Positions 11,335 to 33,237 of a stretch of DNA of 50,177 nucleotides are shown here, one piece after another (the stretch's first letter is position 1; each line of letters begins with the position of its first letter). The DNA is from Nemertoderma westbladi (Eukaryota; Animalia; Xenacoelomorpha): contig JAUCBJ010006108.1 of the NCBI GenBank assembly GCA_032718475.1, positions 1 to 50,177 of the forward strand. Direction: 5' to 3'. The notes beneath the pieces were generated by a model that ran no database searches, had not been told where the DNA came from, and was given only the letters and a program-made list of their open reading frames with translations. A program made the position numbers and the translations under genes.

Positions 11335-11637
11335 CACCACCACGTATTAACTTAAGTGTTATAACAGTGCGACCATCGTTGAAATTAATTAATTCACCTT
11401 GACCGTCATGTAAAGTAATTAAGATTGTTTTTAGTTTTTTATTCAACAATGAGTAATAGCAAATGCTCTCGTATTCGTGATTAATATATTTTCGATTTAA
11501 TTGTGTTAAAGGACAGGTTCTTAAGAGCGGAGCTAAAGCGTCACCAACAAAAGAGCTTTCAATAATATCTGTATATATGAAGATCGTATCTTTATTATGA
11601 GTAATATTCGTGGGATCTGGAAAATCTAAAATACCAA
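11327..11637 (-). pseudogene. Penton paralogue A, 3' half (separated from its 5' half by the BEL insertion)
   Basis: Reads ILDFPDP...IFIYTDIIESSFVGDALAPLLR...DGQGELINFNDGRTVITLKL, in frame with 33238-33783 once the BEL element and one ACCAA copy are removed. Confidence 0.88.
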
Positions 11638-13760
11638 TGTAAGGTCCAGTAGTATACCGCTTACCGGATCCTAGTAACGATGTATCTTACTGTAAGATCT
11701 AGTAATGTATACGGGCTCGTACAGTATCTGACAACAAATCCCAGTCCAGGATATCTAAACAAACAGATACAATACACAAACTACTACTGGCGAGGAGCAG
11801 AGCCTAGTGTCTATTCTATGTACGTGAGCGGGTCTAATGCCTACGAACTAGACAAAAGGATACCTGTCCTCTAACCGGTATGGCAGATGTACAGTTACAG
11901 TAACAGACCAAACTCACGGGAAAACAATCCCCGCGCAGCGAATCCTAACTATCGCTGACAGTCCTAAATACCGTAACTTGCCGCGGTGTGATTTATATGG
12001 TTTATATACGAGCTAGTGGGTTAACAGACCTAGCGTAACAACACTGATTCAGTCCTAAATCAGTCGAAAGAGGGTCGTGCCTAATGTAACAATACTGCTG
12101 AGCAGAAAACAACAGTTTAATAACGAAAATGAAATACTCTCTTTTTGCCGTAACTAAATATCAGATCCTAAATTTACAAATACAGATAAATTCTGCCTAA
12201 AAGTAATCTAAAGTATGCTATAACTAGTAGAACTCTAAGGGTAAATATGTTTTAGGGCGTGTGTGTGTGGGTGTGTTACAATAAAACAATTTTGGTGTAT
12301 ACCTTTTCACTAGGTTTTAGTGATTTTCTGACCGAAATGATACCGTGCGCTAGCTACTAAAATAAGCTAGTCGCGTTTTGTAGAACTTTATACTTACAAA
12401 TGACGTCAAAGCACTCTCCTTCCTATCCACAACTCAATGGGCAACCACGGTGTTAGTAACTACACCCGTGATCGGCACTAATACCAGATTCTGGTTGTAA
12501 GATAAGAAATAGGGGTTAATCGCTACCGTACGTTAGCTGATCTGGTATACAAATTTGATTCTAGAACTTTGTTGCCGCGGTAGTTAGCAGCAATACCTAT
12601 CAGTACGTGGCAAGGCACGGTAGGATATTAATAAAACCTCCCTAGGCCAAGCGGTGTGCCGGTAGCAGAAATACTCCTTGCCTGATCAAATAACTAACTT
12701 CAGGCAGGGGGGGGGGAGTACTAATGTATGTTCTACAAAGCGAACCGGTACCAAACAGTCAGTACTACGAATCACTAAATTATGGAACATATGCTGTCCG
12801 TACCTATGTACTCGCGTACTGACGAACGGCAATAGTTCGCACCTGTGAGAAATACAGGTTAACCCAGGGGTTCGCAGGACTGACAAAGGGGGTTTCTGCC
12901 TAAATATAATTATTTGATCCTAAATTTTGCGGCGTCCAGGACGGCGTCACGCTTACCCTGATCTATAGGTCTTGCGTCGGGCAAGGGCGTCGAACAAAGT
13001 CTTAACTTCCTCGGAAGTCGGGCGCTGCATGGCAAGTTGGAGTATTTCGTAGGGCGAAGGGGGTACGCGGTCAAATCTAATGTGGGCCCTAGCGTGTTGT
13101 GGACATCTTTCCCCTGCGTTGCTGACGGCCTAACGGTCTAGGCTGCCATCTTCCCGATGTTTGGCTGTCCCAAAGTTGGACCAAAAGAAAACATGTTCAG
13201 GAGTTTGCAGTGTATTTACAGTTTAGCAAAGATTTATCAAACAGAATTACAAAATAGTTTCAACAAGAAACAAATAACTAAGAAGTAAGTCAAGCGAAAT
13301 TTTGAGACAAGTGAAGTACAATTGGTTTACAAGAGTGATAACCGAAGGCAAACCAGCCCTTTATATACTAAATCTGGGACATAGAATCCACTAGAATCTT
13401 CTAGAGTATTCCATGGCCTCACATTGGAGCAATAAGATATTCCATGCCCTATGATTGGCCCAACTCATCGTTCGATACGTTGTACGCACCTCATTGGCTT
13501 ACCAATCTGTACCAAATGAAAATAAATGGCCCCAAAATACAAATTTCCCAACCGGGATTCGAACTCGTAACCTATCTGTAATGTAACCAACGCCTTAACC
13601 ATCTGACCACTACGCCACGAGAGTAACTAGGGGTTTTATGTATTCAAATATGAATAGGCATATTACATTACTGTAACTTAATCAAAATGCGTCGGATTTT
13701 CAAAAGTTTTTACGTTAAAGTTAAACTACAAATGCTATCTTATAGTGAAATAATTCATCA
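11638..13760 (-). repeat. 3' LTR of the BEL element (2123 bp)
   Basis: Direct repeat of 31108-33237; roughly 30 differences by manual count (~98.5% identical), including a poly-G length difference. Confidence 0.97.
13545..13616 (-). other. tRNA-derived sequence with Pol III A/B boxes inside the 3' LTR
   Basis: GGCGTAG-TGGTCAGATGG(A box)-TTAAGGCG...GAGTTCGAATCCC(B box)GGTTGGGAA. tRNA spacing, but acceptor and anticodon stems do not pair. Confidence 0.6.
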
Positions 13761-14287
13761 CCGCTCCATGAAAACAGTAAGTAAGACTGTTTTCACCAAT
13801 CGAAATACAAAACATTTACAAACTACTTCTAAATCTACTGGTGGGGCCTAAAATATAAAATAATCACTATCTAATTATTGCATACTTAATATTGCAGATA
13901 CGGCGTAAATACAATCGATCATACATACAAAATACAAATTTACAAATTAACTTTAGTGCCTAAAATACAAAAAAGGCTTTCGGTTATCAAGATAAACAAA
14001 TTAAACAAATCAGAACAAAATAAATCAAAACAAATCGAACAAATAATTGTAACTCCTTCAATAAATCTTTATATATTGTAAATATACATAATAAATTCAC
14101 CAAATTAAATCAGTTCAAATATAAAATAAACATAAGGCGCTAATAACTTCCAAATAAGTCTTAAAGTGTCCCTTTGACGATATGAAAGTTCGTCCTGCTG
14201 GTCTGGATATCTTCTCCTGAGCACTAATTGCTAACGGTAGGCTCGCAAGCCTTCCTTCTCTCGCTCCTCCAAAACCAACGTCTGACA

Positions 14288-14391
14288 TAAATACCCAAAT
14301 ATAATATCCAAATATAATATCCAAATATAATATCCAATATAAATATCCAATATAACATCCAAATATAATATCCGAATATAAATATCCAAAT
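14288..14391. repeat. ~12-13-bp tandem array (ATCCAAATATAAT-like) in the BEL 3' non-coding region
   Basis: About 8 imperfect units, flanked by two copies of the 20-nt motif. Confidence 0.85.
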
Positions 14392-15353
14392 CGGTAGGCT
14401 CGCAAGCCTTCATTCTTCTCGCTTTCCTATTCCTTCACTGAGCGGGCTCGTCCACGTCCTCTATTGCGATTGGGTTATGGTCGAGGTCGAACTGGGCTCG
14501 GACTTCGGCGTCGAGTTGTCGGTGGTTCCAAAACGCTAGGAAAGGGGACAACGGGAGTTTCGCACATCCGTCGTGCGCTCAATCATCTAAATCCTCGTCC
14601 GATTCCAATGGTCGACTTAGTATCGGATCGAGTCTCCACAATGCTAGGAGGAAGTCGAAAAGGTGGGACTGTTCCGTCCGCTGACACCTCGCTCTCTGAC
14701 GTCGTTTGGGTTCTAATGGGTTCAGGCAAAGCGTATCCTGTCCCTCCGCGTGGTTCTCTAGCAAGGGAAACCGTGCCCCAAGTCATCCGGATTTGCGACT
14801 TCGATGTCATCCTCTCGGCGACATTTACTACCTTCTTTATCTCTTGTCCGGCCTTCTGGGCTTTGAGTATACGAAATTGCTGATCATCCTGTGGGTGACG
14901 CGTCTTCTATGCTAACGACGTGGCCTTGAAGCCAGTCTCACGCAAAACGTCGGTCTCGTCCAGAATACACGAGGTTACGCGTTTGTGATAAAATGCGCTC
15001 CGGTATGCCCAAGCTATCGAATGCCAGGCTCCTCGATTCCGCTGTTCAACTTGCAGTTTATCGAATTCTCCGGCGGTAATCTTGTTCACCACAGTTTGAA
15101 AGTTCCAAGTATTCTTGTTGTCGGGGTGCACCTGTAAGAAATAGTCCCGCACAACTTTGAATCCGCTGTCCAATGGCAATATATCCAGCACCTCCAACAA
15201 TTCATCATACTGAGGCATAGCCGATACATATCCTTCCTTTGACATTATGAGAGGGTTTACGGCCCAAAATCCCAAATGTGCTCTCATAGGGAAACGGCGT
15301 CGCTGCGTCGATACATGCTCGTCTGCTAGATCCTCCCAATGGTCGAATAGCTG

Positions 15354-18173
15354 TCAAACGATTTTAACTGACATGTGCTCATAGGGGACGTCTCTAAGTT
15401 GACATTCGGATGCCCTATGGCCCTTAATATTACAATAAGTGCACTGCGCCACGAAACGCCAGCAAGTGTAGAAAGTGTGCGAACGTTGATCCCCGCACCA
15501 GTTGCATACTAATTCTGGTAGAGATATGTGCTTCGCCCCGCATTTCTTTGCGTGATGGCCAGTTGCCCCGCATCTGCCACAAATAGTGTTGGCAGGGTAC
15601 CAAACTCGCTCATAGATGAGATCTCCGATGGGGCAAGCGCTACCGTCCACGTGATAATTCTCATCATCCGGGTCAGTCGGTATGTTCGTCTCCGTAGGTT
15701 GTACACAAACCATGGCATCGCTTTTCTCCAACTCGCGTATCTCAGTTCGCGTCTTCCTCGGAAGGTTCTCCTCTATCTCTATGAGTTGCCGCAACGGTTC
15801 ATCTATTAGCACCAACTCGGTCAGATCCACATCGTCGTGATGGGCGGTAGGCTCGCGAGCCTTCCAGGATCCTTCCGGGCGTTCGAATTCCGCGTGGCGT
15901 TCCCCGTCGTAGGGTACTAATGTTAACATCGACGGTCTGTCGACTAGACTTCCCGTGTGAGTGAGATAGACGTCCCTGAAAACGCTAAGTCGCGCTTGCG
16001 TGAAAACTTCGCAGTGCGCATCGGTGTTATAAAAGGGTTGGAGAAATCGTCGGAATACATCAGTATGCATCCTTCCTCCATCGTAAAAGGTATGTCCTTC
16101 GCCGAGACATAACGGGTGTCGCTTTAGGGTTCTGGATACTACATCCACGATGAAACAAACGTTAACCGAAGATTCTATCGCTAAATAGTATTGCAAGATT
16201 ATTCGCGGAGGTGAAGTAATCGCCCAATACACGCAACCTCGCCACTTCAACTGTGACTCGAACTCGTTTACGCCGGGGGTATCTCCCTCTCCGTATACGT
16301 CCGTGTATTTGCTCCTCTTACTCTCCTTGTAATCCCAACTGAACATTAGATATGAGATATAACCCGTCCCAGTTTTTAGCGTGTTATATTCCCTAAAGTA
16401 TCCTTGCTCGATAGCCCAAAGCAACAATGGTCTAGTATCCACGTATGGCGTAGGCAATCGGTCCTCTTCCGTGGGCATTCCCGCAAAATCGCTAATAAGG
16501 TCATCCCGTACACCGGATCCGATCTTGACGATGCTCTTGTCCAACACAACGTCTCGCACGGTCTTTGGCAACATCCTAGCTTCTATGCTACAAGCCAGGT
16601 CCATGGATTTAACTATCCGTTTTATCATCGCGTGTCTTTGCGTCGTTCCTTCCGGCATAGGCATCTTTCTATCACTCCTCTGTCGGCTGAAGACATGTAA
16701 CACGCCATCTGGTGCTCTAATCTGTATAGTCTTTGAAGTGAGGCTTTGCTGATGGCTTCCTCCTTCATTATCGTAAAACATATAACCATTCTCCTTTAGA
16801 GATCGGCTAGTCACGTCCCAATCGTCGAGTAAATCGTCGGTAGGGTTCCAAATTCTCCCAATCGACTTTTCATCATCGAAACTAATAAGTTTACCAGTCC
16901 AATTGGTCGCGATATCGGTGTCGGTCTCAAACGTTCCAACTCCGATCCATAATCGAATCGTTCTCGTCAGATATCCTCGCAAGATACAAGGTGCGATATC
17001 CGTCCCCGCACGATCCACTTCCTTAAAGTCCGTAATATGTGGAGGCACGTTGCGTACGATTTTTTGAACTATTACTTTACGCAACTCGGCTGACTCTAAC
17101 ACATCACCAAAGGTAACCGATGGGAGGAAATCCAGGTTCGAAATGATCTCCAGGTGTTCAACTATAGGGATCTCGTAAGTTGTCTCCTTCCGGGTCGGTA
17201 TACTAATAGGAAAACTAGTTGGTCTCGCAACCAGTACTATCGCTCCAGTAGAATGGGGCTGAGGTTCTCGCGTCATCTCGATATGAGGTATCTGTAGTCT
17301 CTGCGACAAACGCTGAGCAAAGGTGATACTATCGAAGAGCTCGGGTGTCATCTCCTTGGGTTCGGTTTGATCGTGGGATATCCAATAGAATGGTAGGCTC
17401 GCGAGCCTTCCGCCGAACTCCTCGATATCGCCTTTCTCGTACGCCCTGTAGAGGCTCAAAGCTTCCCGTTTCTCTTGTGTCGACTTATTAGACTCGTCCA
17501 CTACCATGCTGTAGACGTCTGGTTCGACTAATTTAGGTTCGTAAATAACGATCTCACCCGCATTCGGTCCACTCATTTTAAACGAATGGTACGGATTTGT
17601 CAAAGGGTATCCGCCTTCTTGGTAACGTAGACTTTGGTGGTGTGAACATCGCGCTAATATCGGCTCGGGGTTCTCCGAGTTCAACCGCATAGGAATCGCG
17701 TTGTCTTGCTCACGCATACACGCTCCACATTTATAAAACAGTTTGTATATGGAGAACGCGTCCTTTGTCTCTGGATCCGCTCCTCGAGCGCGTCTATAAA
17801 GATGCATTCCTTCGAATTCGTCTCTAGCTGCAGGTAAAGGTTCATTTACCGTCAAATATTGCAGCGTATGATACAATCGGCGTATCTCCGTGTCTGGATC
17901 CTCGCAAATGTCGCTAGCGTCGCATAACGCATCGTAGGGATATAACGCATTGAACTCCGCACGTAATTCCTCCGTTCTTTTGTTATATGCGTCCAACCGC
18001 TGTCGCGTAACATTCGGGTCCGCCTTGGATTTAGCGAGCGTGGCTGTACTCCTAGCCATACTCTCCACTCCAAACACACTAAAGTTTTTAGCTCCATAAC
18101 GATTAAATGGCGCCTGGTGCTCTTGTTCCTGCGTAAACCCTTGACGTAACTCCTTATACATCTTCTCCACCAT
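15354..18173 (-). CDS. BEL accessory ORF2: DEDDy (WRN/EXD2/MUT-7-like) 3'-5' exonuclease plus three CCHC zinc knuckles; same frame continues through two stops to ~14583
   Basis: ExoI FYDNEG; IQIRAPDG; LPKTVRDVVLDKSIVKIGSGVRDD (ExoII); YVDTR; ExoIII-like W....PRIILQYYLAIE. Knuckles CGRCGATGHHAKKC, CNWCGDQRSHTFYTC and CTYCNIKGHRASEC. ORFs 14907-15287 and 14583-14810 are in the same frame. Confidence 0.78.
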   Translation of the reverse strand: MVEKMYKELRQGFTQEQEHQAPFNRYGAKNFSVFGVESMARSTATLAKSKADPNVTRQRLDAYNKRTEELRAEFNALYPYDALCDASDICEDPDTEIRRLYHTLQYLTVNEPLPAARDEFEGMHLYRRARGADPETKDAFSIYKLFYKCGACMREQDNAIPMRLNSENPEPILARCSHHQSLRYQEGGYPLTNPYHSFKMSGPNAGEIVIYEPKLVEPDVYSMVVDESNKSTQEKREALSLYRAYEKGDIEEFGGRLASLPFYWISHDQTEPKEMTPELFDSITFAQRLSQRLQIPHIEMTREPQPHSTGAIVLVARPTSFPISIPTRKETTYEIPIVEHLEIISNLDFLPSVTFGDVLESAELRKVIVQKIVRNVPPHITDFKEVDRAGTDIAPCILRGYLTRTIRLWIGVGTFETDTDIATNWTGKLISFDDEKSIGRIWNPTDDLLDDWDVTSRSLKENGYMFYDNEGGSHQQSLTSKTIQIRAPDGVLHVFSRQRSDRKMPMPEGTTQRHAMIKRIVKSMDLACSIEARMLPKTVRDVVLDKSIVKIGSGVRDDLISDFAGMPTEEDRLPTPYVDTRPLLLWAIEQGYFREYNTLKTGTGYISYLMFSWDYKESKRSKYTDVYGEGDTPGVNEFESQLKWRGCVYWAITSPPRIILQYYLAIESSVNVCFIVDVVSRTLKRHPLCLGEGHTFYDGGRMHTDVFRRFLQPFYNTDAHCEVFTQARLSVFRDVYLTHTGSLVDRPSMLTLVPYDGERHAEFERPEGSWKAREPTAHHDDVDLTELVLIDEPLRQLIEIEENLPRKTRTEIRELEKSDAMVCVQPTETNIPTDPDDENYHVDGSACPIGDLIYERVWYPANTICGRCGATGHHAKKCGAKHISLPELVCNWCGDQRSHTFYTCWRFVAQCTYCNIKGHRASECQLRDVPYEHMSVKIV

Positions 18174-18914
18174 CGTATACGCATATATATGGTTACATAT
18201 CGTTACGTTTCTACTAGATGAAGCACAAAATAGAGGTTAGATGTGAGGTGACTTAGAGTTTGTCGGCTTTTGGCTCAACTCTGCTCTAAACCCCAACCCA
18301 TTTGCCTAATGACTTCGGGTTCGTGTGATTTCGCACTGGCTCCTAATCCAAAAAAATAGTGCCGATAAAAAACGAATTCCGGGTAAACTAGCCGTGAGTC
18401 TAAAATACTCACCTTTTAATTTCCCACGCTACATTCCCAAAAGAAAATAGTGCAGTCGAGAATTAATTTGGTCTAAATAATAGTAGACACGACTACGTAG
18501 AACAAGGCCGGTTTTCTTTTTCCAAAAAAAAAATTTATCGGTAGGCTCGCAAGCCTTCCATCCGCTCTTGTCCTCCCCAATTTTAATTTTTATCTAGCTG
18601 TATTCTAGAATTTGCATTCACTGGAGAATCATTTTTCTTAAATTTAAATCCAAATAAATGGATTTGTCTAATAATTTTTGAAAAATTGTCTCACTTGTGG
18701 GTTCCAAGTGGAATTCCATTCCTACTGTACACACAATCCCGCTCCTATGTGATACATAAGGGTACTACCCTCCATGTTAACATATAAAGACAATGGAATT
18801 CCACCGCTGTCTCTATCTACAGTGAAGAGGATTACAAATGCACATACAGTAATACAAAATATAAAATTACTAAAATACGGTAAAGCTATGTGGCGGCCAT
18901 CAAAGGTCCCACAT

Positions 18915-21070
18915 CTATTTACTAATATTGGGTGGAGATTTGTAGTCTCCTGTCTCGTTTCTAGTTTCCTCTAGGAGTACGAGACGTTGTACAGGCCTAT
19001 CTACAGTACGCCCGTCGATAGTCCTTACAGTAACGGTCCTTACTACACCAGATGTAGGGTGTGTGGTCAAAATGACTCCAGTCAGCCAAAACCGTCTTTT
19101 CAGATTAGCTTCAGCCAATAAAACGTGGTCACCACGTCTCAAACATCGTGTATTTAGATACCAAGAGGTTCTGGTCGAAATAGAGGGCAAATAATATTTC
19201 TGCCATATTTCCCAGAATTTATTTGCAAGTAGTTGAGTGATTTTCCAAGCCTTGTTGCCGTATCCGTCACTATCAACGGGTACCGAAATGGGCAACAATG
19301 TCGTCGGCGCCTGCATAAGCAGGTACGCTGGTGTCAAGGCAAACTGTACGTCGTTATTGTCTGGGATCAAAGCGATTGGTCTAGTGTTTAAGATCGCTTC
19401 GATTTCTATTAGTAACGTCGTCAGTTGGTCGTCTGTCATAATGTGTTGCGTCGGTATCACTTTAGCCATAGCTGTTTTTATTGAGCCAATCAGCCTTTCC
19501 CAAACGCCGCCTCTCCACGGACTGTCTGGAGTATTAAAATTCCAAACAATACGGTGAGGACGTAGTTCCTCGGAAATCTGGTTTTGGTCCAACTTTCTCA
19601 AAGCTCTGGTTATCTCGTTCCATGCACCCACAAAGTTTGTCCCTTGGTCACAGTAAATGGATTTGACCAATCCACGTCTAGCGATAAATCGCCGTAAGGC
19701 TAGGATAAAGGCATTGGTGGTTAAATCTGTCACACGCTCAATATGGACAGCTCTGCTGGCCATGCAAGTGAAGATCAATCCCCAACGTTTTACCTGTACC
19801 CTTCCGCGTTTCGCGATTATGGGTCCAAAACAGTCTATCCCCGTCTCAGTGAAAGGGGGTCTAAACGCCTGTAATCTAGCTAGTGGTAGTTCACTCATTT
19901 CCTGGTGTCCTATCCTCGCGTGCACCTTCTTACAAATCATACAGTTCCGTGTTACCGAACTCAGTGCCTTACTAGGTCTAATCAGTACAAACCTCGAGCG
20001 TAAGTGTGATAGACAGTGGTGTCTACCCACGTGTTTGAGTTGTACATGTACGTCCAGTATCATAGCGCGCTGTAATTCGTGGTGTTGCGGTATGATGATA
20101 GGATACCTAAAGTCAAGTGCGAAGTCGATGTTTTGGAGTCTGGACTTGTGACAAAGTAAGCCCCGGTAAATAATCGGACTCCAACTCAAAATCGGTGAAG
20201 ACTTGATCTGTTTACCTTGGTTGATCGCTGTGAATTCTCGTGCGAAATATCGCAATTGATAATGTCTAATGATATCAACTTCACAATGAACAACTTCCTT
20301 TAAGGTAAGTCTTCTAGGAAAGTCGCGTTTGCCTCTGGCATATTGTCTCAATCGTTTGAGCCATGCTAACTTGCGGCACGCGTCAGTCCATGATCTAGTT
20401 AGGTTTACTATCCGGTCAACGTAAGTGTTAGTGACGTCATCAGGTAAGGTGTAGTCGTAGTATGGATACTTGTCTGGACTTGGTAGGCCCACGGGCCTTC
20501 CGGTAGGTTTGTCTGAGTCCCAAAGTACGTCAATCTTTACGGTCTTACCTTTACCGTCCGCACCTAATGTGTCGATTGGCAGTAACGGTTTCAACTCTAC
20601 AGTACCAGTGTGTTCCTGTGAGCCTGTAAGCTTCCTAACCTTAGTCACACGTTTAACTGTAGGTGGTAAGTCAAGTACTTTCTTTGAGCGGAGTGTGATC
20701 GCTGTGGCCACACCTTTGTCGTCCAAAGAAGTCAAATTTGGTAAGTTTCTAAATGTCCGCTCCAATGGGTCTTTTAGTGGAGTGTCTGGTAGACAGTCTG
20801 GTGAAGCGTCCGGTGAACAGTCTGGTGAGACGTCTGGTGAGACATAGCGCGGAACTTCCAGCGAAATGTCCTGTTGTCGGCCCCAAAGTCTGTCTGGCGT
20901 AACTTCTGTCAGAAAGTCTGGTTCAAAGTCTGGTGGACAGTCTGTCGAGATGTCTGGTGGAAAGTCTGGTGAGACGTCCGGTAGACAATCTGTCGAGAGT
21001 TCCATAAAACAATCTGGCGAACAATCCGGAGAACAATCTGGTGTCGCTTCTGGTGAATAATCTGGTGAGT
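18915..21070 (-). pseudogene. pol: BEL pol C-terminal part: SPDx linker and integrase
   Basis: HHCC finger (HVQLKH...CMIC), GIDCFGP, IYCDQGTNF, GGVWERLIG, C-terminal GVVRTVTV..RPVQRL. Joined to the upstream frame by an apparent 1-bp deletion near 21071 (GAT[T]ACTCA). Confidence 0.93.
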
Positions 21071-24000
21071 ATCTGGTGAACAATCCGGCGAAACGTCTGG
21101 TGAAATCTCCCGCGGAACATCCGGCGAAGGATTCATACAAGCGTCTGGTCGAGTGTCTGGTGAGACGTCTGGCGTAATGTCAGGTCTGGCGTCCAGGTCA
21201 TCAGATTTCGTCCGTCCTTGTTTCCTCTTGACCTTGGCGTTGGCTTTCGCTTTGGACTTGACAACCTTGTCGATTTTTATCTCGGCACCTTCTGGTATGG
21301 TGTTGGTTGTCGCGTCGAATAACGGTGGCCATTCGTCTGATGGTCGCTGTAGGAAATCGGGTCCTCTAAACCAAAAGGATTTATTGTCCGGTTTACAAAA
21401 GTCAAGCGGTTGCATCCCCCGCGACGCGATGTCAGCTGGGTTCAGCTTTCCTGGACAGTGACGCCAATCTTGTTTGAGCGACCGGTCTAGTATTTCAGCC
21501 TGTCTGTTGGCTACGAAAGTCTTGAACTCAAATGCTTCGTTGTTTATGTACCAAAGTACCAACGTCGCATCCGTCCAATATGTGACCTTCAAGTTAGCCT
21601 CCAGCTCGCGTTGAACTAGACTGACAATATCTGTGGATATCGTCCTGGCTTGCAGCTCTCCACGAGGTACAGTCATATACTTCAATGGCATTGTTCTAGC
21701 CTTTGAAGTAACGAAAGACACATCGTAGCTGTCCGATGTCACTTGTCGTCTAAGGTATAAGGTAACCCCCAATCCATCCTTGCTAGCGTCACTAAAGCTG
21801 TGAAGCTCTAAATCGGCTGGAAAGGTGGTTTGTAAAGGAAAGTATACCCTCGGTATGGTATAGTCTTGTAGGAACGTCAGTTGGGCTTCCCAGTCCCTCC
21901 ATCGCTCAGCTAACTTTTCTGGGATGGGATCATAAAATTCCAGTCCGGCTTGCCAAATGCTGCGGAGTATGATCCTAGCATGTAGGATCACTGGACTAAT
22001 GAAACACAATGGGTCATACAATCGACTCATGGTCGATAAGCAAGTCCTCTTTGTGAGAGGTCTAGTCTGGTCGTTGGACCTTACACGTACCCTAAAATTG
22101 TCGGTGTTAGGGTCCCAACTAAGTCCTAATAATTTGGTCGTCGGCAGAGGTTCTAGGTCTAAGTCCAAGTCACCTCCACTGCGATCCGTCGAGTCAAATG
22201 AGTTCACCAGCTTGGGTTCGTTGGAAGCGAACTTCGTCAGGTGGAATCCGCCCTCAGCGAGACAATCCTGGAGTTGGTGTGCTACGGTTGTAGCGCGCTC
22301 CAAGGTGTCACAACTCTTGAGGCCGTCATCCACGTAGAAATCTCGTTCCACTGTCCGAACTACTTCTGGGTCAAATTGGTCTCGTCTGTCCAATGCGGTC
22401 TGCTTTAAGGCGTACATGGTGCAGTTGGGGCTGTCCCTGGCTCCGAATACTCTTACCTGCATTTGGTAAGTTTCTGGCGGAAGTTGAAAGTTTCCGTCCG
22501 GATACCAAAGAAATCTCAAGCTGTCCCTGTCCCGCTCCAAAGCCTTAACCTGGTGAAACATGGCCTCTACGTCACAGGTGAAAGCCACTTTGCGTTGTCT
22601 AAAACGCATTAGGACTCCCATGAGGTAATTGTTCATATTCGGCCCGTCCATCAGTTCGCTGTTCATAGACATCCCTTGGTAAAGCGCAGCGCAGTCGTTG
22701 ACTACACGCACCTTGCCAGGTTTGTCCGGGTGTCGAACAAAATGATGTGGCAGGTAATATGTCTGGTCTGTGGTTACCTCGGGATTTAACATCCTAATGG
22801 CGTATCCCTTTTGGAGATACGTCTGAAGTTGTGCATTGTATTGCATATGGGCCGTCTCGTCTCGCAACAATCGCTGCCTTATTGATTTGAGTCGCCTCAA
22901 AGCAAGCGGGTAATTGTTAACGAGCTTAGGTTGTCCATTGCGCCACAACATACCAACCTCATAGTGGCCATTCGCGGTCTGGCGAATGGTATCTCTCATA
23001 ATATTTAATGACCGTTTTTCCTGTTCTGACATAGCGGTCTCGTAACTACCGGGTTCTGCTGAATCCTGTTCCAACCATTGAATGGTCCGTTCAGTCAGCA
23101 GTCGGTCTAGCGCTGCTTGCACTGCGCCATGGTCCTCGTCCACGTCTTCGTCCGCTGCGGTGGCTAGTGTCAATGCGTCTGGTAGGCTCGCAAGCCTTCC
23201 GGTGTCACTAGTCGGCGTCGAATCGTCGTGCGGCGGTTTGACAACTTCTTGATCTATCGGTAGGCTCGCAAGCCTTCCAAGATCAACGACCGGAGTCGAA
23301 GCCTGGTGGGTGGGGTCAATGACCTTTGGATTTTTCGGTAGGCTCGCAAGCCTTCCAAAATCCTCGTTCATCGAGTCATCCACGGCAACAACCCTTTGGT
23401 CTTCAGTAGTCAATACAACCTGGTTTGCTGCAAGTAGTTGTAAGTCAGAGGTCCGTGTGGTCGTGTCCAGATCAGTTACGTCAGTATCGGTGGCATCTAC
23501 GTTGGTGACGCAAGTCTGTCGTAGTGCCGTCCGTACAATTGGACCACGGGAGTGTGAAGGAGAATTATCTATATTGTTAGTCAATAAACTACACGTACTC
23601 AAAACGTCGTCCTCCTGGTCATATACCTCTAGTGAACGTATTGGAGCTCTAGTATACCAACCTATGGGAGTTCTACATGCGTAGGGGTTGCCCGCTGTAA
23701 TAACAGATGGGCGTGTCTCCCATACCTGATGTAAGTTAAACTGGTCTGTCCCAATTAACATCGCAATTGAACGATAATTAACAGGACATTCCGGTATTCC
23801 AAGGTGTCGGAAATACTTATGATCTTCCGGTGATTGCTCTGGCACAGGGCCGAGCAAGTTACTAAAGTCCTTCGTAGCTGCAAAGGTCAAATTTCTTACC
23901 GGAAGTAATGAGCGCTCCTCCTTGCTGTGTTCCGCTTTGGAAAGAAGAGTGTCTAAGGTTAGTTTTACTCTTGTCACAGGGATCGCTCTCTTTCCATGCA

Positions 24001-24106
24001 TGCTGCTTACAGTATACTGAGCAGTCTTACCTTGACTCATGTCCGTAACCATGTCGGCTACTTGTTCGTCGACATAACTATGCGATGACGCAGAGTCTAA
24101 GATAGC
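21071..24106 (-). pseudogene. pol: BEL pol: aspartic protease, reverse transcriptase, RNase H
   Basis: AILDSASSHSY right after the in-frame TAA at 24107; RT YYLPHH, KVRVVND, DVEAMFHQV, FGARDSP, FYVDD; Pao RNase H FSDAS, VPRGELQA, WTDA, NPADIASRG. Confidence 0.95.
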
Positions 24107-25570
24107 TTATATACGCTTGCTCCCTCGGGTTCCGGTAATCTTTATAGGAATCACGCTAAACCCTTTCAATTGGTTCTGTGTGAGGAGCGTTATCGATGGC
24201 TGTTCCTCACCCACATGCACGTAGAAAGTGTCATCTTCCTCCTCGTCCTCGTCCGATGATCCTGACTGATCCATACAGTCTGCATAAAAGGTACGGATCT
24301 CGCGCGGCGCATGCTCCTTGTAAAGCGCGTCGCATCTAGCCGCTTTATCTGGATGCTCTCGTCGAAAGCGTTTGGTCGGAGTATGACTGGTTGTGTGGAG
24401 CAACGCGTCATGGTTACGTCCACACTGAGGACATGTATCGTCGCTCGGGCAATCCTTCCGGACGTGTCCTGGCGTCATACATCTCCAGCAGGAATCTAAC
24501 GATCGAATTTGGAGTCTCCTTTCTTCAATCCCTAACTCCTTAAAAGCGCGACATCCACGAAGTTTATTTCCGCTGTAGTTTCTGCCGTTCCGCTCGCAGT
24601 ACGAGCATCCCACAAAGTCCGCCGGCAACTGTTGTCATGGCTGCGTGGTGCCGATAGGCGTCAGAAGTTTAGAAGTCTCAGTAGGGGTGGCGTAGGTAAC
24701 GGCTTTCGCGTTCGTCGGAAATGGTTTGGTCCGAGTCGGCGCAGAAATAGCTATCCCTTCCGCCGCGATATGGTGATCGGTATAGTTCGATCGAGTCTCG
24801 ATCACGGCCTCCCGTGAAATCAGTTGGTAGACGTCGGTGAGTTTTAATAACCCTCCGGCCTCTTCACGCTGGTACTCGATGCGTCGCCATTCTCGTCGGA
24901 GTCGATGATGAAGTCGACCGATTATCCTGATGAGAACCGTCGGTGCGTTAGCATACTCGAGTTGTCCAATGGACCGTAAAGTCCCTATAGCGTTTTTTAT
25001 TTCGTCTGCGAGTCGTAGAAGGTCGATCAGTTTCGAAATGCTGCCTCCTCTACAGAGGTCTTCGATAATGGATTTAGCCATGGCGACGTTACCTCCGTAA
25101 ATCGAATACAAATGGTCGTACGCCAACTCAAAGGCATCAGGAACACCAATGAAGGTTTCCGCTAATCGTTTCGGCTCACCAGACAGGACTAAGAGCAAGT
25201 AATTAAACTTCTCCGTCAAGGTGAAAGCAAACTTAGCGATCTGGGACTCTACGTAGTCTACCAGTGTGCGCCAGTGTTTCGCATTGCCAGAGAACTTCGG
25301 CGGTTGCTGTGCCGGTAATCCGTGTCTAGCCGCGAATTTCGCAATCTCGCTAACTAAGTCCAACTGTCCGTGTCCCTGTTCGGTGGCGTCGTCCAGTCGT
25401 TCCCTTCCGCGCGTTGTTCGTCGGTAGGAATTATTAACGGGATCTTCTTCTCGATGTGTCGGAGTCTGTCTAGTCTCCTGTTCTCTCCTTGGTGGTCGAT
25501 GTTGTCTAGGTTGTTCCAACTCCACACTGGTTCGTGATCGATCCGACGGTTGCGCTTCGAGTCGTTCTTC
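24107..25570 (-). pseudogene. gag: BEL gag 3' part (capsid-like region and zinc knuckles), in-frame stops at 24635 and 24107
   Basis: PKFSGNAKHW...EKFNYLL..LSGEP...LYSIYG; CWRCMTPGHVRKDC; CPQCGRNHDALLH. Confidence 0.9.
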
Positions 25571-26215
25571 GAGTTTGTTAGCTTATCCAATTCCGCTAAC
25601 ACGAACCCATAAAGTCAACCGTTAGGCAATATTGGGGGCCACGAAATTGGGTAATCAACCAACTCGTGTCACCTCAACAAAATGGGAAGGAGAAACACAA
25701 TGAGGGTCAGGGGCCAAACCCCTAACAGAGAGAGAACAGGTGGAGTGAACGGGAACACTCCAAAGGGCGCCAACAAGGGTATCAACCAATCAGAGGGGGG
25801 AAAGGCATCGATTAGGTAGAGTAACAAGGCCAACCCGTGCAATATAGCCAGTTGGCAGTAATCATTTCACTCAGTTATATCAGTGTTAGTTATTGGTGTT
25901 ACTGTAGTTTACAATAGTTTAGTTAGGGAAGTACCGGGACTTCAATTACCGTATCCCGGCTTCCATGTACAACAACATTATTATTATATCATATCTATAT
26001 CTATATACCCAAGTATTATACACATCGAACAACCGAAACTCTTTTACTCTTCACACACGGCGGGGACGCGTGAACTGACAAACCGGATAAACCGGGATCC
26101 TCCCTGGATCCCGTCACAGTAATTGAAACCTAGCAGCCACCTGACAGTAATTGAATCAGAGCTGCCGCCCTAGTTAAACTCAGTTACCTCAACTAAACAC
26201 CACATCCCAGCGAAG

Positions 26216-26761
26216 ATGAGTCAGTCAAGAAAGACGACACCGCCGCGGACCCCAGACGGCGATCTAACGATTTGCGAGGCCGCGACGAGATGGTATGCAC
26301 CCACAACGCCGAACCCATCGAGAACGGGCCATCCGGCGATCCAAGACGAGGGGGGCCATCTACAGCGAGAGGACGAGACGGGAAGGGAGAAAGATGAGTC
26401 GACGCGGAGCGAGGGTCGACCTACCGATGTCGCCGGCCAGCCACAGGCCGAGGGCGACGGACGACCCACCGGAATGGCGACGGTGGGGCCGCCGGTACGA
26501 CGTCGGGCCCGGAGAGACGGAGGAGAGGTCGGCGATGAGGACGTCGGGGTTTCTGATCGACTTCGACGAGCCTACCTCGCGACCCGGAAGCAACTGAGAG
26601 ATGCCAGAGGAAGGGCGAAGATAGACAAGGTGAAATTGACAAGAGGACTAGGTGAGTCGAGCAGATACTTTGATTACCTAATGCGTTTTGGGCAGAGAGA
26701 ACTAGCCATAGTAGAAGGGCACATAGGGTGCCAGATAGTAGAGTGGTCGTGGGCACCGTAA
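26216..26761 (+). CDS. 181-aa ORF of unknown function in the nested LTR element
   Basis: ATG-initiated, sense to the element, just after the 5' LTR; disordered N-half and basic helical C-half; no domain recognised. Confidence 0.45.
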   Translation: MSQSRKTTPPRTPDGDLTICEAATRWYAPTTPNPSRTGHPAIQDEGGHLQREDETGREKDESTRSEGRPTDVAGQPQAEGDGRPTGMATVGPPVRRRARRDGGEVGDEDVGVSDRLRRAYLATRKQLRDARGRAKIDKVKLTRGLGESSRYFDYLMRFGQRELAIVEGHIGCQIVEWSWAP

Positions 26762-26961
26762 GCGCCACGTAGTTAGAAGAGTCGGTAAGAGTTAGAGAGA
26801 GTTAGTAGAAGTAGAGAGTTAGTAGGAGTTAGTTAGACTTAGTAGAGCTAGTTAGAGTCGGAGAGTTAGTAGAAAGTAAGATAGTCAGATAGTTAGCAAG
26901 TAAGTAGTAGGTAGATAGTATGATAGCACAGGGGTAGCATTAGAAATTAGGGCCTTAAGGG

Positions 26962-27246
26962 GTGACAGAGAGTAGAGAAGTGATAGTGCGGAGTGCGAAG
27001 AGAGCGTGGGCGCAATTAAAGTGTGGGGGAGGAGAAGTGAGAGGAAGAGTGTGGGACGAGGAGGTCCGGGAGTATGCGAGAGTTAGGGTGAGAGTGGTGA
27101 GAGTGCCGGGGAAACAAAAATTGTGTGAGAGAAGCGCACGATCGGCCCGACACGAGACGCCAGAGGGTAGTGACATCATACCCATAGGGAGCAACCTGGA
27201 AAGCCGGCTCCGAAAGAAAATAGACCCACCCCACACCCGATACTAG
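26962..27246 (+). pseudogene. Possible degenerate Gypsy-type RNase H C-terminal remnant
   Basis: VIVRS..AWAQL...RVWDEEVREY..RVVRVPGKQ resembles the pattern F.lrTDH..L.wl....RW...LqeYdf.i.y.pGk.N; catalytic Asp residues absent. Confidence 0.3.
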
Positions 27247-27864
27247 ATCGGGATCCAGCGGAATTGTAGCGCACTTTAGGTGGATGCTATCTTCTCACCG
27301 GGAAGATAGCATGGGGGGGAGTGTTAGCTTATCCAATTCCGCTAACACGAACCCATAAAGTCAACCGTTAGGCAATATTGGGGGCCACGAAATTGGGTAA
27401 TCAACCAACTCGTGTCACCCCAACAAAATGGGAAGGAGAAACACAATGAGGGTCAGGGACCAAACCCCTAACAGAGAGAGAACAGGTGGAGTGAACGGGA
27501 ACACTCCAAAGGGCGCCAACAAGGGTATCAACCAATCAGAGGGGGGAAAGGCATCGATTAGGTAGAGTAACAAGGCCAACCCGTGCAATATAGCCAGTTG
27601 GCAGTAATCATTTCACTCAGTTATATCAGTGTTAGTTATTGGTGTTACTGTAGTTTACAATAGTTTAGTTAGGGAAGTACCGGGACTTCAATTACCGTAT
27701 CCCGCCTTCCTTGTACAACAACATTATTATTATATCATATCTATATCTATATACCCAAGTATTATACACATCGAACAACCGAAACTCTTTTACTCTTCAC
27801 ACACGGCGGGGACGCGTGAACTGACAAACCGGATAAACCGGGATCCTCCCTGGATCCCGTCACA

Positions 27865-30003
27865 GAGTTGAGCTATTCGGTCCGTCATCTCGGTGAACTG
27901 TTTGGCGCTGATCGTTTCCGCTGGTTTCAATGTGGGTTTCTGTTGGGGTGTTTCTCGTGGAGGATTATCGTTATAGGTGTTCGTCGATCGTTCCTCTCGT
28001 TTGTAATCATCCGCCGCTCCAGTACGGAATATTTCCTGTTCCGTCGACTCCGAGTCGCTAGATGAGTCGCTGTCGTCCGGATAAGGTGGTTGGCGGGTTC
28101 GCGTCCGGCGTATTATTCTTGGTCTCGTCCGTTGTGGTCTGGGATCTACGGCTCTCCGTTGTTCGGTAGGCTCGCAAGCCTTCCACGAAGTCGTAGGTCT
28201 CGTTATACGTTGTTTGATCCCGTGGGTACTACCCACATCCATCCTCCTCCGTTGTTCGGTAGGCTCGCAAGCCTTCCACGAAGTCGTAGGTCGCATCGAA
28301 CATTGTGTCAAAGGTCGAGTAAAATAGTCGGGTTTCGTAGTCGGTCTATAAATAACTGGGTTCGCACAGCACGTCACAGGTTTAACTTGTAATGGTTTAC
28401 TCACCTGTTTAATTGTCATAAACGCAGGTTCCTCTCTTCCTACAAGTAGACTACGACTTACTGTAGGTGGACTAGTTATGTTACCTGCTAAAATTGGCGA
28501 TGAAGTCGCCCTAGGTTGCGGTATTTCCTTCACAACAAACCTGTTGCCTTGTGTCGAACGCACAGGCGTTATTTCCTTAGGTTTCGTAACAAAGACCGGT
28601 TTTATCGGAGTCGTGGGTTTGAGCATAGGAATAACTTGGGGAAAACGTTTACAGTAATCCTCGACGAACTCCTCTCCTCGATCTATCGCTCCCATACTTC
28701 CTTCCTCGATTCGCTTCTGAATTCCGCGATATCGAGCTTCCATGCGATCCAGGGCAGACAAGTCGTGTCCAGCTCGCGATCTTATAGATCTATCTCTCGC
28801 GTCGAGTTCAAGGTCCGCTTGCGCGTTCGCTGCCTCGCGCGATCTACGATTCAATTCAAACTGTAGTTGCATCTCCCTTTCGCGTCGATCCGCTACTTGT
28901 TGTTGTGCCGCTAACTCCGCTTCCTGTATAGCCAAACGTGATTTTATTTGCCGTGCCTCCAACTGAGCACGCGCGTCAGATGCCTCTTTCTGTCGTGCTA
29001 AGTCCTCCTCTAATCTTCTCAACTCCGAGGCTTCGACTTCGGCTTGCGCCTTGAGTTGCGCAATTCTCGTCTCGTCTTCTCTACGTTGTTTCTCTCCCTC
29101 GATAGCAATCTGTGCCATCTGGTGTTGCGCTTCTTCCTCGGCGACTTGTTGTCGGCGTGCAACCTCCTGTTGTTGTCGAGTAATTACAGACGCTGTCCTA
29201 CTAACGTCGCCAACGTCGCTCCGCATGCTAACGAACGATCTATCCATTGGTGGAATTTGGTAGGCTCGCGAGCCTTCCGTAGTAAGAACTTCCGTCGTCC
29301 TTTGCGGTTCGACTTCCGGTTCGTCAATCGGTACGCCGCATCTACGAAGAAAATTGGTGAGCGTTTCCAACCTCCCGCCCAGGCAGTAGAGTTCTTCTTC
29401 CTCTTTGGGTTGTAACAACGCGTCCGAAACTGACTCACCTAGCAGTTGGTCGAACTGCTCCTGTTGAGCCAATCTTATCACTGACTTAAACTGGATAAGG
29501 CTTTCTCTCGCACTTACCAACTTATCTATTATCTTTACCTGAGTAAAGTTATCGCCACGCAACTCTGCAAGTTCGTGTAAACCTTTAAGTTTATCTACGG
29601 AGGCATGTACCCTACTTTCTATCCTTACCTGTAAGGTGTAGAACTCGTATCTCGACATCGGGGCGGTTAACTCACGTAAAACGCGAAAACCTTCTCCGAG
29701 GTTCCGAGTAATCTGGGCCATGTGTACTCCTATACTCCTAATAACGTTCTCCTGGCTTCCAGTCGAACTTACCATGTCCGGTTCCTGCGATCTAGTCTGC
29801 GGGACAGTAAGGAAATCTTCGATTCTGCCGTCGCCACGCGTTGCGGCTTCCGGTATTTCCGTTCGGGGTACCGGCAACGCAAGCGGTGTGACATCGGTGG
29901 AATCTCGGGTTCTCCTTCTCGGTTCGTCTACTGTCGATCTGTCCGGGTCGCACGAGTCATAGTCGGTAGGTGGGTATCGAGTCGAATGTGGTGTGTCACT
30001 CAT
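27865..30003 (-). pseudogene. gag: BEL gag 5' part (long coiled-coil and low-complexity N-terminus)
   Basis: ATG at 30003. Removing the nested element and one GAGTT gives ...RIAQL|EERLEAQ... in frame with 25570. Confidence 0.88.
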
Positions 30004-32804
30004 GTCTTATTATATACGTCAAGTACGGGTAATAAAATGTCAAAGTATCTGAATGTTGAAATGTCAAACTTACCTTGGTATATAGGGTATATATATACCG
30101 TAACCGGTACAAATAAATCAACAAAGTCAGAATGTCGAAATGTCAAAATGTCGAAATGTCGAAATGTCAAACTTACCTTGATATATATATATATCATATA
30201 TATACCCTAACCGGTACAAATAAAACTAACAAAGTATATAATAAAATAAGTAATAATCTAGCCTACCGGCTAAATTTGTACGAATAAATGAGATAACGGT
30301 ATACGTTACCAAAATGTAGATCAACAAGTACAAATAATAGGCAAAACAGCAACGTCTAACGGGAAAATAAGTACCAACAACACTACTAATAGACAGTGAA
30401 ACCCACAAATTTTGAGTACTACTGTGTTTTCTTAAGTTTGAATGACGCGAGTCGTAAAACTTACGTTCCTTTGATCTTCCAGTTGTGCAAATTCCCAAAT
30501 ACACACCGGACGTGGGTCGTTCCGTTTTTCGGCGGCGCGGACGAATTTATTGTCTCCCAAACTTTGCGAAAAGCGGTCTAATCCTCGAAGCGGTCCAGAA
30601 ATGAGTCCTTGAGTCCTGAAAGGTCGAAGGTGAGAGTTTTACTTCTACGCTACGAAAATTTCTTCCTAGGTACCGATACAACTTGGTCTTTAAACCCTAT
30701 GTACCTTTTCAAGTACCGAAAAGTAACACCGCACACACACAGCGTAAAACAAAATGCTACAAACTAACTATTAGCTAGTCAAATATTAAATACGAAACTA
30801 GTAGCTACCCTAAAAGCCTACTGAAGCAGGGGACGTTCTACAAATTACTAAATTTACGAACCTTAAATTTTAAATATCTCCTACTTACAATAGCTAACAG
30901 TATGTGAGAGACCTCACGGTTGGATATATATTTCCTACTTTCGTAAGAGAAAATATTTCTCACTGTAAAGTGCGCACGCACTTTACAGAGCGTACATATC
31001 TAAACAATACTATACACTAATTTATATAGTATTTCTCACTGTAAGGTGAGAATACTATACACTACGGTAGAAATACTATACACTAATTTATATAAAATAT
31101 TTCTCACTGTAAGGTCCAGTAGTATACCGCTTACCGGATCCTAGTAACGATGTATCTTACCATAAGATCTAGTAATGTATACGGGCTCGTACAGTATCTG
31201 ATAACAAATCCCAGTCCAGGATATCTAAACAAACAGATACAATACACAAACTACTACTGGCGAGGAGCAGAGCCTAGTGTCTATTCTATGTACGTGAGCG
31301 GGTCTAATGCCTACGAACTAGACAAAAGGATACCTGTCCTCTAACCGGTATGGCAGATGTACAGTTACAGTAACAGACCAAACTCACGGGAAAACAATCC
31401 CCGCGCAGCTAATCCTAACTATCGCTGACAGTCCTAAATACCGTAACTTGCCGCGGTATGATTTATATGGTTTATATACGAGCTAGTGGGTTAACAGACC
31501 TAGCGTAACAACACTGATTCAGTCCTAAATCAGTCGAAAGAGGGTCGTGCCTAATGTAACAATACTGCTGAGCAGAAAACAACAGTTTAATAACGAAAAT
31601 GAAATACTCTCTTTTTGCCGTAACTAAATATCAGATCCTAAATTTACAAATACAGATAAATTCTGCCTAAAAGTAATCTAAAGTATGCTATAACTAGTAG
31701 AACTCTAAGGGTAAATATGTTTTAGGGCGTGTGTGTGTGGGTGTGTTACAATAAAACAATTTTGGTGTATACCTTTTCACTAGGTTTTAGTGATTTTCTG
31801 ACCGAAATGATACCGTGCGCTAGCTACTAAAATAAGCTAGTCGCGTTTTGTAGAACTTTATACTTACAAATGACGTCAAAGCTCTCTCCTTCCTATCCAC
31901 AACTCAATGGGCAACCATGGTGTTAGTAACTACACCCGTGATCGGCACTAATACCAGATTCTGGTTGTAAGATAAGAAATAGGGGTTAATCGCTACCGTA
32001 CGTTAGCTGATCTGGTATACAAATTTGATTCTAGAACTTTGTTGCCGCGGTAGTTAGCAGCAATACCTATCAGTACGTGGCAAGGCGCGGTAGGATATTA
32101 ATAAAACCTCCCTAGGCCAAGCGGTGTGCCGGTAGCAGAAATACTCCTTGCCTGATCAAATAACTAACTTCAGGCAGGGGGGGGGGGGGGGGGGTACTAA
32201 TGTATGTTCTACAAAGCGAACCGGTACCAAACAGTCAGTACTACGTATCACTAAATTATGGAACATATGCTGTCCGTACCTATGTACTCGCGTACTGACG
32301 AACGGCAATAGTTCGCACCTGTGAGAAATACAGGTTAACCCAGGGGTTCGCAGGACTGACAAAGGGGGTTTCTGCCTAAATATAATTATTTGATCCTAAA
32401 TTTTGCGGCGTCCAGGACAGCGTCACGCTTACCCTGATCTATAGGTCTTACGTCGGGCAAGGGCGTCGAACAAAGTCATACCTTCCTCGGAAGTCGGGCG
32501 CTGCATGGCAAGTTGGAGTATTTCGTAGGGCGAAGGGGGTGCGCGGTCAAATCTAATATGGGCGCTAGCGTGTTGTGGACATCTTTCTCCTGCGTTGCTG
32601 ACAGCCTAACGGTCTAGGCTGCCATCTTCCCGATGTTTGGCTGTCCCAAAGTTGGACCAAAAGAAAACATGTTCAGGAGTTTGCAGTGTATTTACAGTTT
32701 AGCAAAGATTTATCAAACAGAATTACAAAATAGTTTCAACAAGAAACAAATAACTAAGAAGTAAGTCAAGCAAAAGTTTGAGACAAGTGAAGTACAATTG
32801 GTTT

Positions 32805-32985
32805 ATAAGAGTGATAACCGAAGGCAAACCAGCCCTTTATATACTAAATCTGGGACATAGAATCCACTAGAATCTTCTAGAGTATTCCATGGCCTCACAT
32901 TGGAGCAATAAGATATTCCATGCCCTATGATTGGCCCAACTCATCGTTCAATACGTTGTACGCACCTCATTGGCTTACCAATCTG
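32805..32985 (-). promoter_or_regulatory. Putative LTR Pol II promoter (CCAAT boxes and TATA)
   Basis: Several CCAAT/ATTGG boxes at ~32900-32985; TATATAAA on the minus strand at ~32836-32843; Inr-like TCACT about 30 nt downstream. Confidence 0.55.
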
Positions 32986-33020
32986 TACCAAATGAAAATA
33001 AATGGCCCCAAAATACAAAT

Positions 33021-33092
33021 TTCCCAACCGGGATTCGAACTCGTAACCTATCTGTAATGTAACCAACGCCTTAACCATCTGACCACTACGCC
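33021..33092 (-). other. tRNA-derived sequence with Pol III A/B boxes inside the 5' LTR (U3)
   Basis: Same as 13545-13616; followed by TTTT about 10 nt downstream. Confidence 0.6.
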
Positions 33093-33237
33093 ACGAGAGT
33101 AACTAGGGGTTTTATGTATACAAATATGAATAGGCATATTACATTACTGTAACTTAATCAAAATTTCTTCGGATTTTCGAAAGTTTTTACGTTACAGTTA
33201 AACTACAAATGCTATCTTATAGTGAAATAATTCATCA

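Follow-up and report, generated by a model that had tools for sequence, protein, structure and literature searches.

Recognition of long terminal repeat (LTR) retrotransposon RNA is modelled on the 5′-leader signals of retroviruses and Ty1. Here we describe a 20-nt near-palindromic motif that occurs 12 times in the internal region of a BEL/Pao LTR retrotransposon, residing in a 50,177-nt stretch of the Nemertoderma westbladi genome (GenBank assembly GCA_032718475.1, contig JAUCBJ010006108.1, positions 1 to 50,177 of the forward strand; hereafter, the window). The motif is real and constrained and is probably an RNA signal, for which we infer a reader and a purpose. By analogy, it would work most like a dispersed packaging signal built from a retroviral-type tetraloop, yet it fails membership of each class: it is too invariant for dispersed packaging signals and, unlike retroviral tetraloops, it is absent from the leader.

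Dispersed packaging signals of single-stranded RNA viruses and of the hepatitis B virus pregenome comprise many small stem-loops that share a loop motif and occur in coding regions as well (PMC6281560). The BEL motif likewise places multiple stem-loops with a common loop motif along a genomic RNA, its fold being predicted. A coronavirus preprint is said to belong with this group of signals. Whereas those signals vary around a sparse motif, span graded affinities, and bind the capsid protein of non-LTR viruses, the BEL motif is a near-invariant 20-mer, resides in an LTR retrotransposon, and has candidate binders.

In retroviruses, the nucleocapsid (NC) protein of HIV-1 (human immunodeficiency virus type 1) binds the guanosines that occupy the second and fourth loop positions in GGAG and GGUG (PMC7599994), and that of Rous sarcoma virus (RSV) binds a UGCG tetraloop (PMC5035970). 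By sequence, the tetraloop of the BEL motif carries G2 and G4 in all 12 copies, as do HIV-1 stem-loops SL2 (GGUG) and SL3 (GGAG) and RSV SL-C (UGCG), and its commonest loop is that of SL-C (PMC7599994, PMC5035970). The element also resembles these systems in encoding CCHC knuckles. The retroviral tetraloops, however, are single hairpins in a folded 5′ leader, whereas none of the twelve BEL copies lies in the leader. With Ty1 PAL1/PAL2 and the retroviral dimerization initiation site (PMC6844567), the motif shares a self-complementary hairpin able to convert to an extended intermolecular duplex, which for the motif is computed to be more stable than two hairpins; those sites are few, mutually different, and located at the 5′ end, in contrast to the many identical sites along the BEL internal region.

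By appearance, the motif looks most like the RM boxes of Sireviruses, which are element-specific, CpG-containing palindromes present in highly similar copies inside an LTR retrotransposon (PMC2829016). RM boxes differ in clustering in the LTRs (upstream of the TATA box) and upstream of env, in being nearly all non-coding and symmetric with a CGG-CCG core, and in being read as DNA regulatory sites (PMC2829016), whereas the BEL motif avoids the LTRs, is mostly coding, and has a fixed asymmetry. The targets of VANC proteins in VANDAL transposons are similar in forming a family-specific motif of one orientation, multiplied in tandem and accompanied by an element accessory protein, but they are 8-9-bp non-palindromic motifs, mainly non-coding, in DNA transposons; they are bound as double-stranded DNA (dsDNA) by the element protein, with loss of methylation (PMC5735166).

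Twelve copies in one orientation and three reading frames

Scanning of the window with the motif pattern, GGAAGGCTYGCGAGCCTACC, at zero to three mismatches revealed 12 minus-strand matches, of which 10 are exact, that at 14393 has one mismatch, and that at 20482 has three; 100 shuffles produced no match. All 12 positions given by an initial annotation, made from the letters of the window, were thereby recovered, although its exact consensus at 14393 was not: motif position 1 (place 14412) is mismatched in the window, and nearly all of the sequencing depth of the family differs there. The copies lie between the LTRs and share a single orientation, on the sense (minus) strand of the element. No thirteenth copy was detected at up to six mismatches across all 50,177 bases, the LTRs, the leader, and the 28.6 kb outside the element included, so the proposed restriction to one orientation and to the internal region is borne out within the window. 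In these respects, the motif is unlike mobile palindromes of the REP, RPE, and MITE types, since it has no copies in the 28.6-kb flank, none in the opposite orientation, and no target duplications.

The motif is the sole clearly over-represented dispersed word of the internal region. As anticipated from local tandem duplications, the copies reduce to eight clusters, and the probability that eight share one orientation by chance is approximately 0.008 (by arithmetic). Spacing between clusters is more even than random (coefficient of variation 0.43, P = 0.016, post hoc). Fifteen of the 20 positions are invariant and four more vary in one copy only. Every loop has the form Y-G-Y-G (UGCG in eight copies, CGCG in three, and CGUG in one), and the A.A mismatch noted previously is present in 12 of 12 copies.

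Nine copies occur in coding sequence, the remaining three (14236, 14393, and 18540) being outside long sense open reading frames (ORFs). The frames WKA[C/R]EPT, GRLASLP, and EGSRAYQ were read as initially described, and the copy at 20482 reads GRPVGLP in the same frame as GRLASLP. Because the motif is read in three frames, conservation at the level of the peptide is excluded, as had been argued. All six copies in the gag and pol-integrase ORFs sit where 0-8 of 120 BEL proteins align, from which we infer spread into linkers. Such spread might have involved template jumps by reverse transcriptase (RT), together with local tandem duplication, into linkers that would tolerate insertion.

Among the same 120 BEL proteins (28-49% identity), the peptide signatures of the motif did not recur: six one-mismatch matches were found, none of them repeated, and the motif is thus not demonstrated beyond this BEL family. 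Viral contigs contained scattered single matches at four loci, with one shared context; metagenome contigs contained 96 loci matching a looser pattern, with one exact match each; and GTDB genomes contained two single exact matches. None of the 100 viral and metagenome loci was similar to the element by tblastn or blastn, and no relatives of its RT region were found in viral contigs. Among the collections searched, no relative outside this BEL family carries the motif. We did not find a described equivalent, either a repeated near-invariant hairpin in an LTR element or a BEL/Pao packaging stem-loop, in a literature search that covered subscription journals thinly. Rfam yielded no match at gathering score and four weak matches, none on a motif copy. 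We rejected a likeness to bacterial GTAG REPs or the histone 3′ stem-loop on the grounds of loop, stem length, context, orientation pattern, and the lack of an Rfam match.

Constraint on the motif nucleotides

Family contigs aligned on 23150-23390 at 80% likeness and a 1% share permitted one of the eight clusters to be fully tested; such contigs drop rare variants, and run X4 contributed nothing on this interval. In total, 21 variant rows were obtained at 20 places. Only one of these 20 polymorphic places lies in the motif, compared with 6.7 expected (P = 0.002; 60 motif bases of 179 testable, 23181-23359), and the depletion is retained when the first copy is left out (P = 0.018). Third-position variation is absent from the motif in this cluster (0 of 9 variants, P = 0.03), in line with the suppression of synonymous variation that the initial annotation suggested looking for. 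Moreover, the two spacers of the 78-nt tandem units are identical at 32 of 58 positions, whereas the three motifs are identical at 20 of 20 (P ~7e-6 for a single pair, given the rate in the spacers). These observations point to selection acting on the nucleotides of the motif.

In some contigs, alignment is confined to a pair of motif copies, each with 1-4 bases of flank, and the stretch between the pair is unalignable (joints 18561>23333 and 23279>23333). The sides of these joints measure 21-24 letters, and joints this short can arise from repeats, as they do here by construction. The motif also remains intact if a 5-letter insertion listed behind 14251 is aligned immediately beyond its edge, a placement that the sequence allows. 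The suggestion that the loop variants reflect CpG decay is disfavored, because the observed/expected CpG ratio of the internal region is 1.15 and none of the 12 copies has a G-to-A loop form; in its favor, seven LTR transitions do touch a CpG context.

A micro-palindrome without function, whether selfish or neutral, that template switching had spread and conversion had homogenized would be compatible with the one orientation, with the linker positions, and with the purine found at position +21 in 12 of 12 copies, which makes a 21-nt in-frame unit conceivable. This origin, close to the mobile palindrome listed among the initial options, is nevertheless very unlikely: the depletion of polymorphism, third codon positions included, would be unexplained; the motif edges are sharp, with no flanking target duplications; and self-correction would erase the A.A mismatch that is kept throughout. 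The nucleotides at -1 and +21 form U.G (six copies), C.A (four), or A.G (two) combinations and never a Watson-Crick pair (Fisher P = 0.03 on eight sites). This pattern would fit isosteric wobble pairs. We retain this flank pattern as a lead, for which shared ancestry of two flank types is equally explanatory.

Predicted fold and candidate readers

The sense RNA of each copy is predicted to form a hairpin composed of two G-C pairs, the A.A mismatch, five further pairs, and the tetraloop. With 10-nt flanks, 11 of 12 copies have this hairpin as their predicted fold of minimum energy, and the twelfth has its upper stem; the z-scores of most motif hairpins are unremarkable. The predicted fold of the copies at 23259 and 23337 extends into a lower stem of 7 bp that carries a bulge of 2 nt (z = -4.3 and -3.6), in which all seven pairs are kept through the double changes U-A/C-G and G-C/U-A (post-hoc null P ~0.004). 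Frequent polymorphisms at 23256 (20-45% of depth) and 23334 (7-14%) hit the same bulge position. The only in-motif variant converts a G-C pair to G.U on the sense strand; together with the two asymmetric loops, it makes three of three C-to-U types that keep sense G.U pairing, a weak indication given a chance of 1 in 8. Taken together, these features favor a folded RNA structure. A compensatory U-A to C-G change in the variant copy at 20482, reported in the initial annotation, is present, but as covariation it is not significant: it concerns one pair in one copy and is reached by 261 of 500 column shuffles.

The structure in the flanks bears on whether the motif could instead be a dsDNA site for a dimeric factor, encoded by the element or the host, engaged in VANC-type anti-silencing or Sirevirus RM-type regulation. 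The inverted half-sites around a 4-bp CpG-containing spacer would suit such a factor, one orientation with local tandem growth is found in VANC targets (PMC5735166), and RM boxes are palindromes of 10-20 bp in 8-32 copies (PMC2829016). We nonetheless consider a dsDNA site improbable, since it provides no reason for the lower-stem compensatory changes, which lie outside the 20-mer, or for the bulge polymorphisms; moreover, the LTR promoter region contains no copy and 9 of 12 copies are coding.

Computed self-duplex energies range from -33.7 to -37.9 kcal/mol, compared with about -9 to -11 kcal/mol per hairpin. In agreement with the initial annotation, self-duplexes are computed to be stronger on the sense strand for both asymmetric loops (UGCG, -33.7 versus -25.9 kcal/mol; CGUG, -35.4 versus -31.9 kcal/mol) and equal for CGCG. 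These values would permit multivalent RNA-RNA pairing as the main job of the motif, with hairpins converting to an intermolecular duplex with a 14-bp core that zips the genome dimer or clusters element RNAs. Ty1 PAL1/PAL2 are hairpins as long as the RNA is monomeric and form an extended duplex once it is dimeric (PMC6844567), and palindromes have been proposed as drivers of homotypic clustering (PMC13079385). However, in-register pairing requires self-complementarity rather than the same 20 letters (A.A and the outer GG/CC included) at every site. Identical sites would favor out-of-register pairing and deletions. Among the 15 joints listed of a total of 139, there is no clean deletion from one motif copy to another. 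The invariant A.A mismatch weakens the duplex. Pairing is accordingly an improbable main function. That the sites are identical even in features that make a duplex weaker is an argument for recognition by a protein and not solely by base pairing.

The reading that we prefer, though tentatively and with slightly less than even confidence, is that the motif is a dispersed RNA docking signal for the CCHC knuckles of the element, serving packaging or ribonucleoprotein assembly. A dispersed nucleotide-level cis signal, as initially proposed, is supported by the depletion of polymorphism, the divergence of the spacers, and the compensatory lower stem, and protein docking fits best among the options offered for it. 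By analogy with HIV-1 and RSV, the knuckles of Gag NC, and perhaps those of ORF2, would recognize loop G2 and G4 of the predicted A.A-mismatched, Y-G-Y-G-capped hairpin, and hairpins placed every 1-3 kb would mark an RNA of ~17-19 kb for capture and particle assembly. Secondarily, the thermodynamics would allow Gag to chaperone the hairpins into intermolecular duplexes, a switch that may aid dimerization. If docking is correct, a very long LTR element would use distributed, multivalent self-recognition through a hairpin repeated within its coding sequence. The motif offers a 20-nt ligand with two candidate readers, and family-specific repeated hairpins could provide a cheap computational handle for other giant LTR elements.

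Several observations weigh against docking for packaging. Packaging and dimerization signals of retroviruses and Ty1 sit in the 5′ leader or R/U5, regions in which no copy was found; the first copy lies ~750 nt into gag, and 30007-33237 contains none. Five copies are downstream of integrase and would therefore be present on a subgenomic ORF2 RNA as well. Established dispersed packaging signals show variation around a short motif in the loop (PMC6281560), in contrast to the near-invariance over 20 nt observed here, some RSV assays detected no reduction of Gag selectivity or packaging upon loop changes (PMC5035970), and Atlas belpaovirus capsids without NC bound nucleic acid non-selectively for sequence (10.64898/2026.03.22.711591). 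The single orientation is equally a trait of VANC DNA sites (PMC5735166). With regard to structure, pairing probability drops to 0.02-0.7 in the two 3′ non-coding copies when 15-40 nt of flank are included, the extended stem is found in 2 of 12 copies only, with the other 10 showing no extension beyond that of shuffled flanks, and a formal covariation test on the 12 copies inside the 20-mer was not significant. Four rare variants affect paired positions near 23259 and 23337; two keep a sense G.U pair and two break sense pairing, one of the latter fitting the antisense strand only and the other fitting neither strand. Finally, cross-mapping may inflate depth over the motif copies and thereby dilute variant shares.

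Two products of the element are candidate binders. Three zinc knuckles are described for BEL/Pao NC (10.64898/2026.03.22.711591); the NC segment contains two by pattern, and a third, degenerate one may lie upstream. ORF2 was described initially as a CCHC-exonuclease. Its three CCHC knuckles are present in the sequence, with a zinc-knuckle Pfam score of 19.4 that falls below the cut-off of 20.8, but the exonuclease label stands as a lead only: an Atlas feature match to DNA_pol_A_exo1 plus zf-CCHC proteins scores 0.85, under the lead threshold of 0.9, and Pfam returned no exonuclease match in ORF2. N-terminal Atlas matches all score below 0.8, the single-sequence structure model has a pLDDT of 32, and a search for ORF2 homologues found none. 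Assignment of ORF2 as a DEDDy 3′-5′ exonuclease is likewise a lead only.

It is conceivable, though rather unlikely, that the hairpins are an RNA self-mark read mainly by ORF2, which, docked on the hairpins of every element transcript, would protect, export, or trim these RNAs as a form of RNA-level counter-silencing in place of packaging. The copies run through ORF2 and the 3′ region and are lacking from the leader, the triple knuckle and the Atlas match would fit such a reader, and extra DEDDy ORFs occur in rotifer LTR elements (PMC5408684); the sub-threshold exonuclease score, the lack of a Pfam exonuclease match, and the poor structure model speak against it. With similarly low confidence, one may picture an element that stamps its own RNA with a 20-nt barcode copied in three frames and encodes the putative reader as a triple-knuckle, exonuclease-like ORF2. 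If so, the barcode would be an RNA-level counterpart of VANC self-recognition. It would enable a giant LTR element to recognize its own RNA as distinct from that of the host and to shield or chaperone it; comparable barcodes in large retrotransposons may be general and overlooked.

The carrier element and its surroundings

The coordinates of the element, its motif copies, and the candidate binders are collected in Table 1.

Table 1. Features of the BEL/Pao element and of the repeated motif in the window
Feature	Position	Strand	Description
BEL/Pao LTR retrotransposon	11638..33237	-	Full-length insertion, 21.6 kb including nested element; broken copy (LTR pair, target duplication, Pfam)
5′ LTR	31108..33237	-	TG...CA; without motif (LTR pair comparison)
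Motif copy	29259..29278	-	Loop CGCG; gag N-terminal ORF, EGSRAYQ frame
Motif copy	28258..28277	-	Loop UGCG; gag ORF, WKACEPT frame; 93-nt local repeat
Motif copy	28165..28184	-	Loop UGCG; gag ORF, WKACEPT frame
Gag NC segment	24107..24634	-	CCHC knuckle and CCHH-type knuckle; candidate binder (Pfam, knuckle pattern)
Motif copy 23337-23356 with predicted lower stem	23328..23363	-	Loop UGCG; GRLASLP frame; linker before RT; 7-bp lower stem, 2-nt bulge
Motif copy 23259-23278 with predicted lower stem	23250..23285	-	Loop UGCG; GRLASLP frame; same lower stem as 23337 copy, two compensatory pair changes relative to it
Motif copy, third of 78-nt tandem units	23181..23200	-	Loop UGCG; GRLASLP frame; without that lower stem
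Variant copy	20482..20501	-	Loop CGUG; closing pair C-G, not U-A; GRPVGLP; linker before integrase
Motif copy	18540..18559	-	Loop UGCG; spacer between integrase and ORF2
ORF2	15354..18236	-	960 codons between stops; three CCHC knuckles at the C terminus; candidate binder (ORF list, knuckle pattern)
Motif copy	17392..17411	-	Loop CGCG; ORF2, GRLASLP frame
Motif copy	15846..15865	-	Loop CGCG; ORF2, WKAREPT frame
Motif copy	14393..14412	-	Loop UGCG; 3′ non-coding region; position-1 mismatch in this window only
Motif copy	14236..14255	-	Loop UGCG; 3′ non-coding region
3′ LTR	11638..13760	-	Without motif (LTR pair comparison)

The element is bounded by two LTRs that are ~98% identical, begin and end with TG...CA, and are flanked by a 5-bp target duplication (11633-11637 / 33238-33242). 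At ~2.1 kb, the LTRs are unusually long. Pfam matches were obtained to DUF1759, a zinc knuckle, Peptidase_A17, an integrase zinc domain, and DUF5641. BEL/Pao membership follows from the LTRs, the target duplication, and the order gag (DUF1759)-knuckles-RT/RNase H (Peptidase_A17)-integrase (DUF5641). The top-scoring of 140 relatives are BEL polyproteins with ~40% identity, those that are named coming from marine invertebrates and fish. The nested element within gag interrupts the reading of this copy, as do two stop codons and a change of frame. In public runs of one organism, the family occurs at very high summed depth, a value that is not a copy number.

The 2.3-kb nested element (25576-27864, minus strand) has 550-bp TG...CA direct repeats that are 99% identical and a 5-bp target duplication; it is TRIM-like, is without a motif copy, and contains an ORF of 195 codons on the plus strand (26174-26761) with no Pfam match. 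A degenerate 12-nt tandem array encoding SPD/SPE-type peptide repeats (20760-21200) lies between RNase H and integrase, at the frame change of this copy. Between the two 3′ motif copies there is a 13-nt AT-rich tandem array (14290-14391), a region in which some family contigs have only 30-32 letters between the motif copies.

No canonical TGG primer-binding site was found after the 5′ LTR (30950-31111, minus strand). This result, along with the regular spacing of the copies and their purine-rich 5′ arm, would be in keeping with sites that act in reverse transcription as pauses or as internal plus-strand primers for a very long genome. We regard such a role as extremely unlikely, because the purine run spans just 6 nt in the coding copies and no other data suggest priming. 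A 17-mer at the LTR-end junction occurs three times (31111, 31043, and 30967), strong hairpins are predicted for the region that contains these sites, and a 10-nt complement of the first post-LTR bases, located in the LTR near 32330, could serve in self-priming or as a splice acceptor. The LTR also carries a tRNA-like segment (~33025-33100, with its counterpart in the 3′ LTR) with look-alikes of A and B boxes, upstream of a TATA-like box at ~32843. ARAGORN calls this segment at a lowered threshold only and makes no call by default; it may represent the captured head of a short interspersed element (SINE), a Pol III unit, or a primer encoded by the element itself.

Elsewhere in the window, AT-rich ORFs (762-5279, plus strand; 10490-11158, minus strand) have no clear Pfam match; that at 10490-11158 may resemble the minor capsid protein of Polintons or adintoviruses. 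A separate rve integrase ORF (34251-35342) and a RING-like ORF (36878-37513) are present on the minus strand. A 570-bp repeat pair (6300-6867 and 48180-48735) shares 90% identity and has a weak match to DUF6451.

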